Below the pieces are notes generated by a model that had not been told where the DNA came from, made no database searches, and saw nothing but the letters and a program-made list of their open reading frames with translations. A program made the translations under genes and the position numbers. From the sequence record MH359124: a stretch of 64,000 nucleotides of DNA, one strand, 5' to 3'. Shown here piece after piece: positions 3,749-55,217 of the stretch (the first letter of the stretch is position 1; each line of letters starts with the position of its first letter). The DNA comes from Escherichia phage SF.

Positions 3749-3964
3749 AAGAGAAATTTAAAGAGAAATTCTTACTAGAAATCAAGGAAAAAGACTTTGA
3801 GACATGGTATCGAATGGTGAAAGGGTTGACATTGCTTTTTAAAGCATCCTTATTCATGTTAGAACAACCTGGTCCTGATGGACCTTTAGTAGGAAAGCTT
3901 AAAAAGTAGTTTACATTCCCTCCTCTCGTGTTATGATAGGCTTATCTTTAAATGGAGGTCTATC

Positions 3965-5286: not shown

Positions 5287-5316
5287 GTGTACACTACCTG
5301 AGGGCATGATATTATA
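5287..5316 (+). promoter_or_regulatory. early-type promoter
   Basis: GTGTAC, 17 bp spacer, TGATATTAT, followed by the conserved TAGACCTATCA cassette. Confidence 0.45.
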
Positions 5317-52772: not shown

Positions 52773-53069
52773 ATGATTTTAACTGAACAAGAAACTATGG
52801 TTCTTCGTGAACGTATTAAAACTATTCTGTCTGTAGGCGTTCATTGTGTTGTATTTGAAAAGGCTAACGGCGAGGTACGCACTATGTTTGCTTCTCGCGA
52901 TGAACTTGAAGTCAAATATGAAAATAACAATCCAGCAACAGAAGTTCGTTATGAACCTCGTGAATCAGTTCGAGCATTCGACACCAAGTTAGGTCAGTGG
53001 CGTTCTTTCCGCCTTGATAAAGTAATTTCGGTTGATGGTACTCCGGTAGAACGTTTGCTTCTTATGTAA
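52773..53069 (+). CDS. hypothetical protein
   Basis: Start moved to ATG 52773; 98 aa. Confidence 0.5.
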   Translation: MILTEQETMVLRERIKTILSVGVHCVVFEKANGEVRTMFASRDELEVKYENNNPATEVRYEPRESVRAFDTKLGQWRSFRLDKVISVDGTPVERLLLM

Positions 53070-53126
53070 TATGCTTTACGAATAGTATGGTATTATTAAT
53101 CTATCGTCAAACAACAAGGAAATAAG

Positions 53127-53459
53127 ATGTCTGAAGTACAACTCCCAATTCGTGCTGTTGGTGAATATGTCATTCTGGTTTCTGAACCCGCTCAAGCAGG
53201 TGATGAAGAAGTTACCGAATCAGGACTTGTGATTGGTAAACGTGTTCAAGGTGAAGTTCCTGAACTATGTGTAGTTCATTCTGTAGGTCCTGATGTTCCT
53301 GAAGGTTTTGTTGAAGTCGGTGATTTGACTCCACTACCAGTTGGACAAATTCGAAATGTTCCGCATCCATTTGTGGCTTTAGGTCTTAAACAACCTAAAG
53401 AAATTAAACAGAAATTCGTAACATGCCACTATAAAGCTATTCCGTGCCTTTATAAGTGA
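53127..53459 (+). CDS. 31: co-chaperonin gp31 (GroES-like)
   Basis: 110 aa; almost identical to recalled T4 gp31 ([34 protein letters not shown]...). Confidence 0.95.
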
Positions 53460-53467
53460 TATAAATA
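53460..53467 (+). promoter_or_regulatory. late promoter TATAAATA upstream of rIII
   Basis: Exact TATAAATA immediately after gene 31 stop. Confidence 0.45.
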
Positions 53468-53583
53468 ACTATATGAAGAGAACACTCTTCTAAGCGGTAG
53501 CCTACAACTGAGAGACTTGTCGAAAGAAGGTGAAATTCAGACGAACGTGGCTACTAAATATTATCTCGAATTGAGACTTTAAA

Positions 53584-53832
53584 ATGATTAAACAATTACA
53601 ACACGCTCTTGAACTGCAACGCAACGCATGGAATAACGGTCATGAAAACTATGGTGCATCCATTGATGTTGAAGCCGAAGCTCTTGAAATCCTGCGTTAT
53701 TTCAAACATCTGAATCCTGCTCAGGCTTCTTTGGCCGCTGAACTGGAAGCTAAAGATGAATTGAAATATGCTAAGCCTCTGGCTTCTGCCGCACGTAAAG
53801 CAGTTCGTCATTTTGTTATTACCCTTAAGTAA
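53584..53832 (+). CDS. rIII: lysis inhibition accessory protein RIII
   Basis: 82 aa; MIKQLQHALELQRNAWNNGHENYGASIDVEAEALEILRYFKHLNPAQ matches recalled T4 RIII. Confidence 0.88.
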   Translation: MIKQLQHALELQRNAWNNGHENYGASIDVEAEALEILRYFKHLNPAQASLAAELEAKDELKYAKPLASAARKAVRHFVITLK

Positions 53833-53910
53833 GTTAAATCGAGGAGCCGTCGAATTGTCTGATTAATGATTTGCGAATCATTATAGTTTTAAGACCCCAA
53901 CAATTTTACG

Positions 53911-53939
53911 GTGTACCTCTTGAATGTATTTTGTACTAT
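53911..53939 (+). promoter_or_regulatory. early-type promoter inside a 265-bp noncoding gap
   Basis: GTGTAC, 17 bp, TG-n-TACTAT; followed by about 155 nt of leader before the next ATG. Confidence 0.4.
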
Positions 53940-54096
53940 CACGCGTCAGAAAAAGGTTATCTGTCTAAGTCGTGGTTGGTATGATGACGAGGTTTATGGT
54001 TATCCTGTCGTTAAATATCCAAAACCTATGTTCCCCTTGAGGGCTTGCGCAGGCAATGTCAATAAGTCCTGCATTTTCATTTAAAGAGAATTTATA

Positions 54097-54276
54097 ATGG
54101 CAAAACAAGCTAAAGCAAAGAAAGCAGTTGAAAAGAAAGTTGATGGTACCTCTAAACGCGCTGGATACAAGCGTGGGTCGAACTCTCGTATTAATCAAAC
54201 AGTTGAGAAGATCATGCGCAGAGCACGTGCAGTTCTTCGAGATGATGCTTCTCGTTTTGGAAAGGTTGTTGCATAA
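54097..54276 (+). CDS. small basic protein (59 aa), unknown
   Basis: Below the track cutoff; hand-translated MAKQAKAKKAVEKKVDGTSKRAGYKRGSNSRINQTVEKIMRRARAVLRDDASRFGKVVA; followed by a terminator. Confidence 0.4.
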   Translation: MAKQAKAKKAVEKKVDGTSKRAGYKRGSNSRINQTVEKIMRRARAVLRDDASRFGKVVA

Positions 54277-54282
54277 TTTTAG

Positions 54283-54304
54283 GGAGACTTCGGTCTCCCT
54301 TTTG
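54283..54304 (+). terminator. rho-independent terminator
   Basis: gggagac-ttcg-gtctccc + TTTT, identical to the hairpin at 39182. Confidence 0.55.
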
Positions 54305-54335
54305 TGTGTTTAGGGCAGAAAAAGTTTAAAAAGAT

Positions 54336-54365
54336 GTTTACTCTCCTATAGGATGTGTTACTATA
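54336..54365 (+). promoter_or_regulatory. early promoter
   Basis: GTTTAC, then GTTACTATAGAC cassette. Confidence 0.45.
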
Positions 54366-54405
54366 GACTTGTACCACCTAATCAATAAAACAACCGGAGA
54401 ATAAA

Positions 54406-54777
54406 ATGAACACTATCAATTTAAATGCTACAGTTAAATGCCATGACCATGATGGATATAAATCTCAAGTTGTTAACGAGTTACAGTGGATGGTTCGTTC
54501 AGTTCAAGGTGATGTAGTTTATTGTACAACTCCTGATGGCCCTTCAGACGATTTTTGTTATCATATCGAAATCGAAAACTTTTTCACTGGTGAAATTTAC
54601 CGTCTGAATTCTACAGTTTATGGTTGTATTCGTTCTAAAACTTACGAAGACGAAGAGACTGGTTACTCTGAAGATGTTGTATGGTACGAAAATGCCAGAA
54701 ATCGCGCAGAGGCATTAATCGAGAAGATTAAAGCAAAAGGTGTTATTGATTCAGCTAAGTGGACAAAAATCAAATAA
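54406..54777 (+). CDS. hypothetical protein
   Basis: 123 aa, Cys/His-containing. Confidence 0.5.
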   Translation: MNTINLNATVKCHDHDGYKSQVVNELQWMVRSVQGDVVYCTTPDGPSDDFCYHIEIENFFTGEIYRLNSTVYGCIRSKTYEDEETGYSEDVVWYENARNRAEALIEKIKAKGVIDSAKWTKIK

Positions 54778-54781
54778 AAAT

Positions 54782-54821
54782 GTTTACTTTGGTACAGGTT
54801 TTGTTATTATAGACCTGTACC
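54782..54821 (+). promoter_or_regulatory. early promoter with 9-bp stem (GGTACAGGT/ACCTGTACC)
   Basis: GTTTAC at 54782; inverted repeat around TTGTTATTATAG. Confidence 0.5.
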
Positions 54822-54851
54822 AACAAACAACTTAAACATCTGGAGAATAAA

Positions 54852-55217
54852 ATGAACTACATCAACTTTGAACGCAAATATGTTTCTAACGGTATCGCCG
54901 GTTCTATTGATACGATTTGCTTATGGAAACATAAAAATGGTTCAGTATGTGAAATTGAGCAGTATATGACTCCTAATTACGTTTATATGCGATTTGAAAA
55001 TGGCATCACGGTTTCAATCACAATGGACGGTTCCAACTTCAAAATTGCATTAGATGACGATTTCCGTCAACGTGATTTAGGTACTCATCCTTGCTGGAAT
55101 GGTGATAATCGTAAACTTCTGGTTAAAACTTGGATTCGTCATATCCTGAGTAACCGAGCTAAACCTGAACATCTCGAAGCAATCTTTGATGTAGTTCTTA
55201 ACGAATTCGATATCTAA
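54852..55217 (+). CDS. hypothetical protein
   Basis: 121 aa. Confidence 0.5.
   Translation: MNYINFERKYVSNGIAGSIDTICLWKHKNGSVCEIEQYMTPNYVYMRFENGITVSITMDGSNFKIALDDDFRQRDLGTHPCWNGDNRKLLVKTWIRHILSNRAKPEHLEAIFDVVLNEFDI

Follow-up and report, generated by a model that had tools for sequence, protein, structure and literature searches.

What does a T4-type phage maintain in a stretch of 264 nt, between two of its genes, that encodes no recognizable protein? The question is raised by the DNA of Escherichia phage SF (MH359124), an RB69-like T-even phage of which 64,000 nucleotides, hereafter called the window, were analyzed. The rIII gene (82 aa, positions 53584 to 53832 on the plus strand, stop codon at 53830-53832; assigned from the ORF list and from the rIII annotations of RB69 and T4) is followed there by a gap running on the same strand from 53833 to 54096, which forms both the 3' UTR of rIII and the leader of gene 30.9. 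An initial description made from the bare sequence (the sequence-only reading) had drawn attention to about 265 bp devoid of a credible ORF and to the unusual length of this interval, and both points hold: by a crude ORF survey, the gap is the second longest of the 18 stretches of at least 90 nt without an ORF in the 64 kb, the longest being the 52-ac-stp-ndd region, which contains very small genes.

The same reading had named conservation in related phages as a check, and a degraded gene as the outcome that would speak against a functional leader. The gap is present in 43 of 43 related loci, where its length ranges from 120 to 416 nt, and 774 phage records match its sequence. Between the window and the Dhakavirus-like relative L033, identity reaches 95.1% in the gap, compared to 89.2% in rIII and 70.7% in 30.9. 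No ORF of the gap is conserved among the relatives compared: the window has a 57-aa ORF starting with GTG, which in ATK47, T4 and L037 is either shifted in frame or shortened, and no ORF of at least 25 aa exists in the gaps of L022 and L024. Moreover, the lengths of the indels that distinguish relatives are not multiples of three. Because no ORF is conserved, indels are not triplets and conservation exceeds that of the flanking genes, the gap is not a decayed gene. A hidden protein gene was also considered, as the region of the pseudoknot described below can be read as ...YDDEVYGYPVVKYPKP... with synonymous-looking CCN variation; this candidate was rejected on account of 1-nt frame-shifting indels in T4 and ATK47, which lie inside the pseudoknot and preserve its stem where a reading frame would be broken, of in-frame stops in several relatives, and of a start codon that is not conserved. 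That the gap derives from a lost gene or mobile element, is still decaying and has no function now is for us barely credible. Its variable length, the coming and going of its parts and the 97-aa 'ORF D' annotated here in an old T4 entry would fit such an origin; however, 'ORF D' extended 30.9 too far and finds no backing in the final T4 sequence, and against a remnant stand the conservation of the gap above its neighbors, the lack of any shared reading frame and the strong covariation reported below. The gap is non-coding, under purifying selection, folded on the plus strand and modular in its layout, and it always contains the pseudoknot.

Downstream, the small basic ORF pointed out by the sequence-only reading is a known gene, 30.9 (54097 to 54276, plus strand), conserved (phrog_1427, E = 2.4e-31) and annotated as gp30.9 in RB69 and T4, to which its 59-aa product is 100% and 96% identical, respectively. 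Gene 30.9 lies between rIII and 30.8 in the same order in RB69, ATK47 and T4, and also in 43 related loci. The homologues of gp30.9 fall into 65 clusters, all from T4-type phages and all hypothetical, and cover 1005 phage records; no Pfam or PDB relative of the protein was found. It is strongly basic (10 lysines and 8 arginines in 59 residues, pI 11.35), and an AlphaFold2 model of moderate confidence (mean pLDDT 66) is mostly helical, essentially a single helix. Nucleic-acid binding, as had been proposed, is a possibility for which only the charge of the protein speaks.

On the plus strand, the gap is a mosaic of conserved RNA modules arranged in the order module C, cassette D, module A (the pseudoknot), hairpin H1, hairpin H2 and a weak Shine-Dalgarno hairpin; these modules are inserted, deleted and shuffled between T4-like phages at sharp junctions. 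Folded as a whole, the gap is no more stable than shuffled sequence (z = +0.32). A search with the 4227 families of Rfam, using E-value and gathering thresholds, returned no match in the region, in a 71-nt slice of it, in the whole window or in 16 relatives; the best scores in the region were at chance level, and no family reached its gathering score anywhere in the window. The covariance-model search of the leader that had been proposed as a check was thus empty as far as known families are concerned, and productive with a model built for the purpose, as described below.

The first module, C (53841 to 53919, plus strand), is an RNA element of four helices: P1 (53841-44 with 53916-19), P2 (53846-50 with 53908-12), P3 (53852-59 with 53899-906) and P4 (53864-71 with 53876-83), with a conserved internal loop of 15 nt, UAGUUUUAAGACCCC. 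RNAalifold, applied to 13 distinct sequences, gives 25 pairs with 98.8% of cells paired; five pairs are changed on both sides in a compensatory manner, a number matched by 0 of 500 shuffles. Several of the G-U pairs are invariant, and therefore the plus strand is the folded one. The inverted repeat reported by the sequence-only reading exists, about 2 nt from the position given for it (53864-53871 with 53876-53883, that is, TAATGATT-TGCG-AATCATTA over 53864 to 53883); it is not a free-standing hairpin but helix P4 of this larger conserved fold, and in L036 it takes the compensating form AUCGAUU/AAUCGGU. The P4 hairpin is AU-rich, with one G-C pair in eight, and is not scored by the terminator scan. 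A RegB site was discarded, since the sole GGAG (53843-46) is paired within module C and is not kept in module E, a related element presented below.

The main feature of the gap is module A (53980 to 54029, plus strand), in which positions 53986-54029 form a pseudoknot; the sequence-only reading had missed it. Stem 1 pairs 53986-92 (GACGAGG) with 54004-09 (CCUGUC), and stem 2 joins bases of the hairpin loop (53995-54001, UAUGGUU) to the tail (54023-29, AACCUAU); the conserved loop bases are UU (53993-94), AU (54002-03) and GUUAAAUAUCCAA (54010-22). Among 28 distinct copies, paired cells make up 82.4%, and both sides have changed in 65 cells; shuffled alignments give 27.7 +/- 3.8, and none of them reaches 65 in 500 trials. 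The covariation score is 0.432, compared to at most 0.156 for slid controls. Compensatory pairs number 9 of 13 and are found in both stems: 4 of 6 in stem 1 (88.5% paired) and 5 of 7 in stem 2 (77.1% paired). Module A therefore has the two stems, each with compensatory changes, by which an H-type pseudoknot is recognized. The covariance model built from it finds a single match in the 64-kb window (70.5 bits, E = 9e-15). One copy is present in each of the 43 rIII-30.9 gaps, one per genome, always on the coding strand; as pattern and covariance-model searches agree that the window, like each of the genomes, has just one copy, a dispersed repeat was rejected. A box C/D or K-turn reading of UAUGAUGA was likewise set aside, relatives having UGUUGA or nothing and snoRNA matches being at chance level, as was a group I intron upstream of the pseudoknot in L061 and L068 (no Rfam match, poor pairwise alignment). 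The proposal of a structured RNA in the leader is borne out by the plus-strand fold and by the covariation in module C and in this pseudoknot, a previously unannotated element that is absent from Rfam and of which we found no description in the literature searched.

The pseudoknot occupies no fixed place in the gap. It ends 67 nt before the 30.9 start codon in the window and about 60 to 336 nt before it among relatives, and in some phages it directly follows the rIII stop codon; since this spacing varies, the element fits poorly with a classical translational operator. Further copies are found in the tRNA arrays of Aeromonas phages and of uncultured T4-like phages, between tRNAs or just upstream of them and on the same strand: the pseudoknot fills the 58-nt spacer between tRNA-Asp and tRNA-Pro in L049, ends 8 nt before a tRNA in L145 and L128, and follows tRNA-Pro in Aeromonas phage 44RR2.8t, the contig of which is not among the gp30.9 loci. 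In L055, it is kept next to a truncated 30.9. Copies beside tRNAs speak for an RNA-level role that is independent of a neighboring coding gene. In 596 Gb of bacterial genomes, 17 pattern matches were obtained, close to what the information content of the pattern leads one to expect (roughly 35), and none of them scores as the motif.

It is conceivable from this distribution that the pseudoknot, alone or with neighboring modules, is excised from the primary transcript to give a small stable RNA acting in trans, for instance as a decoy or guide, in the manner of T4 RNA C and RNA D. Within tRNA arrays, processing by RNase P and RNase E would free it, gp30.9 is not needed nearby (44RR), and its place within the rIII-30.9 gap is free. 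We nevertheless hold this to be unlikely. No convincing promoter or terminator bounds such an RNA in the window, where the sequence-only reading had envisaged a separate small RNA and where no terminator or other 3' end precedes gene 30.9, and no target complementary to it was identified. The stable RNAs C and D of T4 (species 1 and 2 of the tRNA cluster) are, like the pseudoknot, non-coding RNAs of T4-type phages, and the copies elsewhere in tRNA arrays add to the likeness, but module A lies here in an mRNA leader, outside any tRNA cluster, and kinship with either RNA was rejected, local alignments being no better than those of shuffled sequence.

A broader proposal, and in our estimate quite an unlikely one, is that the pseudoknot represents a new, phage-specific class of functional RNA, independent of 30.9 and kept in all T-even phages as well as in Aeromonas and uncultured T4-like ones, with module E as a second such RNA. 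In one version it may be the ligand- or protein-sensing domain of a riboswitch-like regulator. The pseudoknot resembles the preQ1-I riboswitch (RF00522) and other small H-type riboswitches in its short hairpin, with base pairs between the loop and the 3' end of an A-rich tail, in its conserved unpaired loop bases and in a total length near 45 nt. Unlike them, it has no Rfam match even when searched as a 71-nt sequence, does not overlap the Shine-Dalgarno sequence, has no bacterial copies that we could find and lies in no evident ligand-related gene context. In another version it may be a stable trans-acting RNA of about 50 nt, freed by the tRNA-processing machinery and serving, for instance, as a tRNA-arm mimic or as a decoy against host RNA-targeting defences.

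Among the remaining modules, cassette D (53929 to 53979, plus strand) is a 51-nt indel module with a small hairpin (CAGA, 53947-50, with UCUG, 53960-63; loop AAAAGGUUA), the stem of which reads CAGC/GCUG in L004. It is present in RB69, L004, L006, L017 and L033-39, missing from T4, L005, L007 and L008, and replaced in L031, L032 and L038 by module E, a related, pseudoknotted module of 137 nt. Downstream of the pseudoknot, hairpin H1 (54033 to 54043, plus strand; CCCC-UUGA-GGG, then a conserved CUUG) has the stem variants CCUC/GAGG and CCCU/AGGG in relatives and varies little within the window's own type. Hairpin H2 (54049 to 54072, plus strand) has a GCAGG/CCUGC stem that closes a conserved loop of 14 nt, CAAUGUCAAUAAGU, and a U-rich stretch comes after it. 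The stem is swapped for GAACUGG/CCAGUUC in L022 and L027, the loop being retained. Support for H2 is thin because covariation is seen in one pair only, and RNAalifold favors a competing helix, GGGCUUG/UAAGUCC, in which there is zero covariation. A terminator/antiterminator switch between H1/H2 and this helix was rejected for the latter reason, and also because the UAAG partner is missing in many relatives. The last element, read from the sequence, is a possible weak hairpin (54074 to 54090, plus strand; UUUUC, 54074-78, with GAGAA, 54086-90) that covers GAGA, the Shine-Dalgarno sequence of 30.9; distant relatives have a stronger counterpart (UCUCC...GGAAGA), as do rIII leaders (CCUC...GAGG). 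For sequences of the window's own type, support is thin for H1 and H2 and for the Shine-Dalgarno hairpin alike.

A parallel layout is found one gene upstream, in the leader between gene 31 and rIII (53460 to 53583, plus strand), which comprises a late-promoter box TATAAATA (53460-67), a hairpin 1, CUUCUAAGCGG, a long hairpin 2 and a Shine-Dalgarno hairpin. This layout is kept in 26 relatives, with a fold z-score of -2.1, and the interior of its hairpin 2 matches, in sequence type, the H2 hairpin that L009, L021, L026 and L041-43 have in their 30.9 leaders.

Such exchanges raise the question of whether the modules act as DNA, the RNA folds being incidental: they would then be cassettes for recombination or shuffling, of the promoter-early stem-loop (PeSL) type, or part of a replication origin. 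The sharp junctions at which modules are shuffled, inserted and deleted, and the exchange of the same hairpin interior between the 31-rIII and rIII-30.9 leaders, are consistent with this, as are the established part of PeSL cassettes in this kind of shuffling among T4-type genomes (PMC2839356, PMC4122927) and an 'ori type 2 repeat' annotated just upstream of 30.9 in one GenBank record. The gap shares with PeSLs (Arbiol 2010; Comeau 2014) the character of short, conserved, intergenic non-coding cassettes subject to indels and swapping and, superficially, a stem-loop followed by a TTTAC-like/TAYWAT-like pair (53864-53939). PeSLs, however, combine a terminator with a strong early promoter and are dispersed in many copies per genome, whereas modules A and H1 were each found once in the window and once per genome in about 420 kb of related DNA, H1 at this locus only, and in IMG/VR the count is one per contig for module A and likewise for module E. 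The stem-loop P4, which belongs to a larger fold, is not called as a terminator, and the promoter is poorly matched: set against the PeSL consensus TTTACW-N17-TAYWAT, the -10 box TACTAT fits, the -35 box TGTACC agrees at 4 of 6 positions, and the matrix score given below falls far short of real promoters. Compensatory changes, loop-to-tail pairing and G-U pairs on one strand point to single-stranded RNA rather than duplex DNA, and we judge a DNA-level role highly improbable. Bacterial interspersed mosaic elements (BIME/REP), found between the genes of operons, offer a further likeness, as mosaics of small structured motifs between co-transcribed genes that are thought to affect mRNA stability and processing; they are highly repeated across a genome, whereas a phage genome has the modules of the gap at a single locus or in two paralogous leaders.

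The sequence-only reading had placed an early-type promoter at 53911-53939, and a sequence of that form is there on the plus strand (GTGTAC, 53911-16, N17, TACTAT, 53934-39), overlapping the 3' strands of P2 and P1. It is a weak match. On a weight matrix built from seven clear, near-identical early promoters of the window, these reach 46-55 (33-46 with each omitted from the matrix in turn) and the candidate -12.9; it ranks 987th of 127,906 positions on the full matrix and 58th on the core hexamers alone. A sigma-70 scan of both strands found no promoter in the gap. The candidate -10 box sits in cassette D and is thus absent from T4, L005, L007 and L008; in L006, the spacing is lost through a 6-nt deletion, and L004 lacks a -35 element altogether. 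A MotA middle promoter and a late promoter were rejected, as neither TGCTT nor TATAAATA occurs within the gap. The 155-nt leader derived from the early-type promoter is not established, because it depends on this weak candidate.

These data also weigh on a scheme modeled on the T4 gene 32 operator, in which 30.9 would be self-contained: transcribed from 53911-53939 with a 155-nt leader, its message would be stabilized by the cassette D hairpin, and gp30.9 would bind the leader pseudoknot to repress its own translation. The -10 box TACTAT and the spacing are the same as those of the neighboring 30.8 promoter, the hexamer rank is high, the predicted start would put the cassette D hairpin at the 5' end, and a very basic protein is encoded downstream of the pseudoknot in all 30.9 loci. 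We consider the scheme very unlikely, given the matrix score and the promoter parts that are missing or mis-spaced in T4 and in L004 to L008. The comparison with gene 32 leads in the same direction. Its autogenous mRNA operator is also an H-type pseudoknot in the leader of a T-even early/middle gene, tens of nt before the start codon, conserved among relatives and upstream of a gene for a protein that looks like a nucleic-acid binder. It has no sequence relation to module A, and is followed by an open AU-rich tract where module A is followed by the folded hairpins H1 and H2, which lie in the interval before the start codon; module A, moreover, varies in its spacing and occurs where gp30.9 is absent, as in tRNA arrays, or truncated, as in L055.

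The 3' boundary of the unit is clear. The strong terminator that had been noted after the ORF is a consensus intrinsic terminator (54281 to 54310, plus strand), made of GGGAGAC-UUCG-GUCUCCC (54281-54300) and a T-run; with a stem of 8 pairs (5 G-C) and a loop of 4 nt, it has the features of rho-independent terminators, is the only one in 53000-55000, and is annotated at the same place in the ATK47 record. The terminator scan found none between 53833 and 54096. A strong early promoter for 30.8 follows (54336 to 54364, plus strand; GTTTAC-N17-TACTAT) and opens the next unit. The strong terminator after 30.9 and the strong 30.8 promoter indicate that the transcription unit ends with 30.9. In T4, the RNA of 30.9 is classed as early (PMC9697503 supplement), and there is no recognizable promoter in the T4 rIII-30.9 gap.

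We therefore favor, with a probability of about 0.6, the view that the gap is a transcribed, structured intercistronic leader, acting in cis to control how the 30.9 mRNA is processed, how stable it is or how much of it is translated. Transcripts would enter from the promoters of gene 31 and rIII, possibly also from the weak promoter at 53911-53939, and the gap would be co-transcribed in a rIII-30.9 message. The pseudoknot, with its conserved loop bases, may be the recognition site of a trans-acting protein or ribonuclease, the binding of which would set the balance between cutting and protection of the message between rIII and 30.9. Together with H1, H2 and the Shine-Dalgarno hairpin, this factor would set the level of 30.9 translation, in a unit that stops at the 54281 terminator; control of processing, stability or translation would be the outcome.

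T4 and its relatives rank with the best-studied viruses, yet according to a 2010 review of post-transcriptional control in T4, neither a riboswitch nor a trans-acting small RNA had been characterized in them (PMC3014915). The locus carries covarying RNA folds that are conserved above the surrounding genes. It provides a concrete, mutable target to understand how T-even phages tune the expression of early operons, and bears on the role of the enigmatic gp30.9 and on the same RNA motif found elsewhere in tRNA arrays. Finally, the shuffling of RNA modules at a single site is a pattern of diversity different from that of the dispersed PeSL cassettes.

In sequence, this region of the window resembles RB69-like T-even phages (genus Mosigvirus); phage PHB12 gives the top match, with 99.4% identity, and RB69 reaches 96.7%. 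The gene order is cd, 31.1, 31, rIII (53584-53832), a 264-nt gap, a 59-aa ORF (54097-54276), a terminator, 30.8 and 30.7. The sequence-only reading had drawn attention to this gap, to an inverted repeat within it and to a basic ORF ending at a terminator, and all are present: the repeat lies at 53864-71/53876-83, the ORF (annotated as gene 30.9 in both RB69 and T4) has 18 K+R among its 59 residues and a pI of 11.35, and the strong terminator 3' of it occupies 54281-54300 plus a T-run. Gene 30.8 then begins with a strong early promoter. A crude ORF survey of the 64 kb left only one stretch longer than the gap uncovered, in the 52-ac-stp-ndd region, where the genes are very small; T4 has an equivalent gap of 244 nt. 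Our best reading, to which we give a probability of roughly 60%, is that the gap works in cis as a structured intercistronic RNA, in which a pseudoknot is the conserved recognition element.

Among 43 loci having both rIII and 30.9, taken from IMG/VR and GenBank, the gap is present in all 43, with a length of 120 to 416 nt, and a sensitive DNA search for its conservation in related phages matched 774 phage records. Its identity to a Dhakavirus-like relative is 95.1%, compared to 89.2% for rIII and 70.7% for 30.9, and Tequatroviruses in which the 5' part fails to align still share 93-97% identity with it in the 3' part. The window's gap holds a single sizeable ORF (57 aa, GTG start, 53911-54084); ATK47, T4 and a third relative (L037) have it frame-shifted or truncated, and the gaps of two others (L022, L024) have no ORF of at least 25 aa. 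This ORF comparison and the higher identity than in the flanking genes contradict the reading of the gap as a degraded gene remnant. The old T4 entry X17657 annotates here a 97-aa 'ORF D' (UniProt '11.1 kDa protein'). It is an over-extension of 30.9: in the final T4 sequence an in-frame stop allows at most 14 codons of extension, and in the window a 1-nt indel shifts that frame.

In alignments the gap is a mosaic of discrete modules, whose presence and order differ between phages. T4, ATK47 and many distant phages have a 31-nt segment, a GGUGAUUCGCUACCUUAGUGCGGCUAG-type hairpin, that separates the rIII stop from the next module (module C in T4 and ATK47); compared with L002 (ATK47) and L003, the window is without this segment at 53833-53840. 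Module C (53841-53919, + strand) has four helices by RNAalifold on 13 distinct copies: P1 (GAGG/CCUC), P2 (GCCGU/ACGGU), P3 (8 bp) and P4, the last being the inverted repeat. In it 98.8% of cells are paired and five pairs are changed on both sides, a result reached by 0 of 500 shuffles; its invariant G-U pairs identify the + strand as the folded one. Cassette D (53929-53979) is an indel missing from T4 and several relatives, and in three loci (L031, L032, L038) a 137-nt module E sits exactly where it would be. Further 3' are hairpins H1 (54033-43) and H2 (54049-72, with a conserved 14-nt loop) and a weak hairpin covering the Shine-Dalgarno sequence (54074-90); within the window's type support for these three is thin, with one covarying pair, and distant relatives have equivalent hairpins with different stems.

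Other elements were seen in these gaps. Module E, outside the window, is a highly structured RNA of about 137 nt (GGCAAGUGCAUGC...GCUAACGGUGUGCAACAGAUAAGAG) found in the rIII-30.9 gap of many relatives (L009:954-1090, L031:940-1076 and 18 others), one copy per genome. RNAalifold gives it 40 pairs, 18 with compensatory changes, a loop-to-upstream pseudoknot covaries by eye (CGAUGG/CCAUCG, CUAUGG/CCAUAG, CAAUGA/UCAUUG), and Rfam gives no match. A small hairpin whose conserved loop reads UGUACG, with GGUAAC after it (L009 ~843-866, also L015, L020 and L045) adjoins the module A pseudoknot in several relatives, and its stem covaries (CCAUG/CAUGG, CUCUG/CAGAG, CUUUG/CAAAG). The ATK47 and ATK48 records carry a 10-nt 'ori type 2 repeat' just 5' of 30.9 (L002:2208-2217, about window 54077-54086), for which we saw no supporting evidence.

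Module A (53980-54029), an H-type pseudoknot, is the sole module found in 43/43 gaps, always in one copy and on the coding strand; a covariance model finds a single copy in the window (70.5 bits, next best 14 bits). Stem 1 pairs 53986-92 with 54004-09 and has compensatory variants (GAC-G-AGG/CCUGUC, GUCGUAG/CUAGAC, GUGG/CCAC), and stem 2 joins seven hairpin-loop bases (53995-54001) to the last bases of the 3' tail (54023-29), again with covariation (GGUU/AACC, AGUAGUU/AACUACU, GAUGG/CCAUC, GUGAG/CUCAC, UUUGGUU/AACCAAA). In 28 distinct copies, aligned by MAFFT with no fitting to structure, pairing holds in 82.4% of cells, and both sides have changed in 9 of the 13 pairs; both-side-changed cells number 65, versus 27.7 +/- 3.8 in shuffles (0/500 reached 65), and the covariation score is 0.432, versus at most 0.156 with partners slid. 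One-nucleotide indels in T4 and ATK47 keep the stem and would break a reading frame, so conservation acts at the RNA level. Almost no variation is seen at the unpaired bases UU, AU and GUWAAA...AAA, a pattern suggestive of specific recognition. Strand-specific covariation, single-copy distribution and conservation all disfavour a role of the modules as DNA-level cassettes, which is very improbable, and a decayed remnant, which we consider scarcely credible.

The pseudoknot also occurs elsewhere. An exact-pattern scan gave one match per viral contig, and several matches are outside the rIII-30.9 context. An uncultured phage (L049) has its copy on the tRNA strand, flanked by tRNA-Asp and tRNA-Pro; in Aeromonas phages 44RR2.8t and 31 the copy comes after tRNA-Pro; other copies stop 8 nt short of a tRNA-Met or tRNA-Lys, or come after a gp52-like gene. 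Copies within tRNA arrays of these Aeromonas phages and of uncultured phages, on the tRNA strand, include L049:6800-6849, L047:2095-2144, L145 (revcomp 79-127) and L128:10-58; in some, a tRNA begins 8-15 nt further on. The 44RR contig is absent among those encoding gp30.9, and in one relative (L055 ~12000-11800, reverse strand) 30.9 keeps only its first ~14 codons before diverging, with the pseudoknot and H1 kept after rIII; the pseudoknot is thus independent of gp30.9. Genomes of bacteria and archaea, 596 Gb in all, gave 17 pattern matches, about the number estimated from the pattern's information content (~35), and none of them scores as this pseudoknot; by these scans it is phage-specific. 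In two uncultured contigs (L068:2456-3305, L061:1138-1360) it is preceded by a long ORF-free stretch, of ~850 nt after a gp52-like gene and ~220 nt after tRNA-Ile; the two have in common a motif AAGGTCAAG..GGTAA, and Rfam gives only a partial tRNA match.

An early-type promoter had been proposed at 53911-53939. GTGTAC-N17-TACTAT is indeed in the sequence, but it is a poor match, far below true early promoters. With a weight matrix built from the window's seven near-identical early promoters, these score 46-55 (33-46 when left out one at a time) and the candidate -12.9, rank 987 of 127,906 positions; its core hexamers alone rank 58th. A sigma-70 scan found no promoter in the gap. The candidate's -10 box is inside cassette D and its -35 element inside the P2/P1 strands of module C, so that this 'promoter' depends on D happening to lie directly against C. 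The seven (A-tract, GTTTAC, N17, TAYTAT, AGAC) lie on the + strand at 3910, 9937, 22223, 22545, 39232, 54337 and 54783, far above every other position of the scan, with a weaker eighth at 5288.

The T4 gap has no promoter recognisable from its sequence, which makes read-through from rIII the simplest source of 30.9 mRNA and the gap an intercistronic leader. A self-contained unit of promoter, leader and autoregulation, possible in RB69-type phages, cannot be general, and we hold it to be improbable. According to a paper on RIII (PMC9409239), early, middle and late promoters all serve rIII; in a T4 time course 30.9 RNA was classed as early and gp30.9 protein was undetected (PMC9697503 supplement). 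In all relatives the gene 31-rIII leader (53460-53583) is laid out along parallel lines: directly behind the gene 31 stop comes a late-promoter box TATAAATA (53460-67), then hairpin 1, CUUCUAWGYGG, a hairpin 2 that varies, and a Shine-Dalgarno hairpin. In T4 and RB69 the inside of hairpin 2 shares its sequence type with the H2 that distant phages have in their 30.9 leader, and this recurrence suggests exchange between the two leaders. A sigma-70-like promoter (TTCAGA-17-TATTAT, 53536-53564) overlaps hairpin 2.

The protein gp30.9 belongs to phrog_1427, a family of unknown function, and has no Pfam domain and no PDB relative. Its 65 homologue clusters come exclusively from T4-type phages, each of them hypothetical or misnamed, and it occurs in 1005 phage records, with enterobacterial hosts throughout among the groups listed. 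An AlphaFold2 model (25 sequences) is mostly helical and of moderate confidence (mean pLDDT 66), the C-terminal helix (residues 30-54) being more confident. That it is a nucleic-acid binder, as the sequence-only reading had it, is a guess from its charge. Many records (for example MK524178, OL964735, OR352946) label it '1,4-alpha-glucan (glycogen) branching enzyme, GH-13-type', which for a 59-aa basic protein is wrong, an annotation-propagation error.

The gap and gene 30.9 were already annotated. The RNA folds of the gap are absent from Rfam, where a covariance-model search of the leader, as the sequence-only reading had proposed, gave no match to the pseudoknot, and they are undescribed in the papers searched, a scope that leaves outside Driukas and Nivinskas 2003 on rIII/30.9 expression (cited in PMC9409239). 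According to a 2010 review, T4 had no characterised riboswitch or trans-acting RNA (PMC3014915). The free spacing of the pseudoknot to both genes and its copies in tRNA arrays argue against a classical translational operator. They favour the view that the pseudoknot would take part in the processing or protection of RNA, or else that a small RNA would be released, a rival reading that we regard as unlikely though worth keeping in mind.
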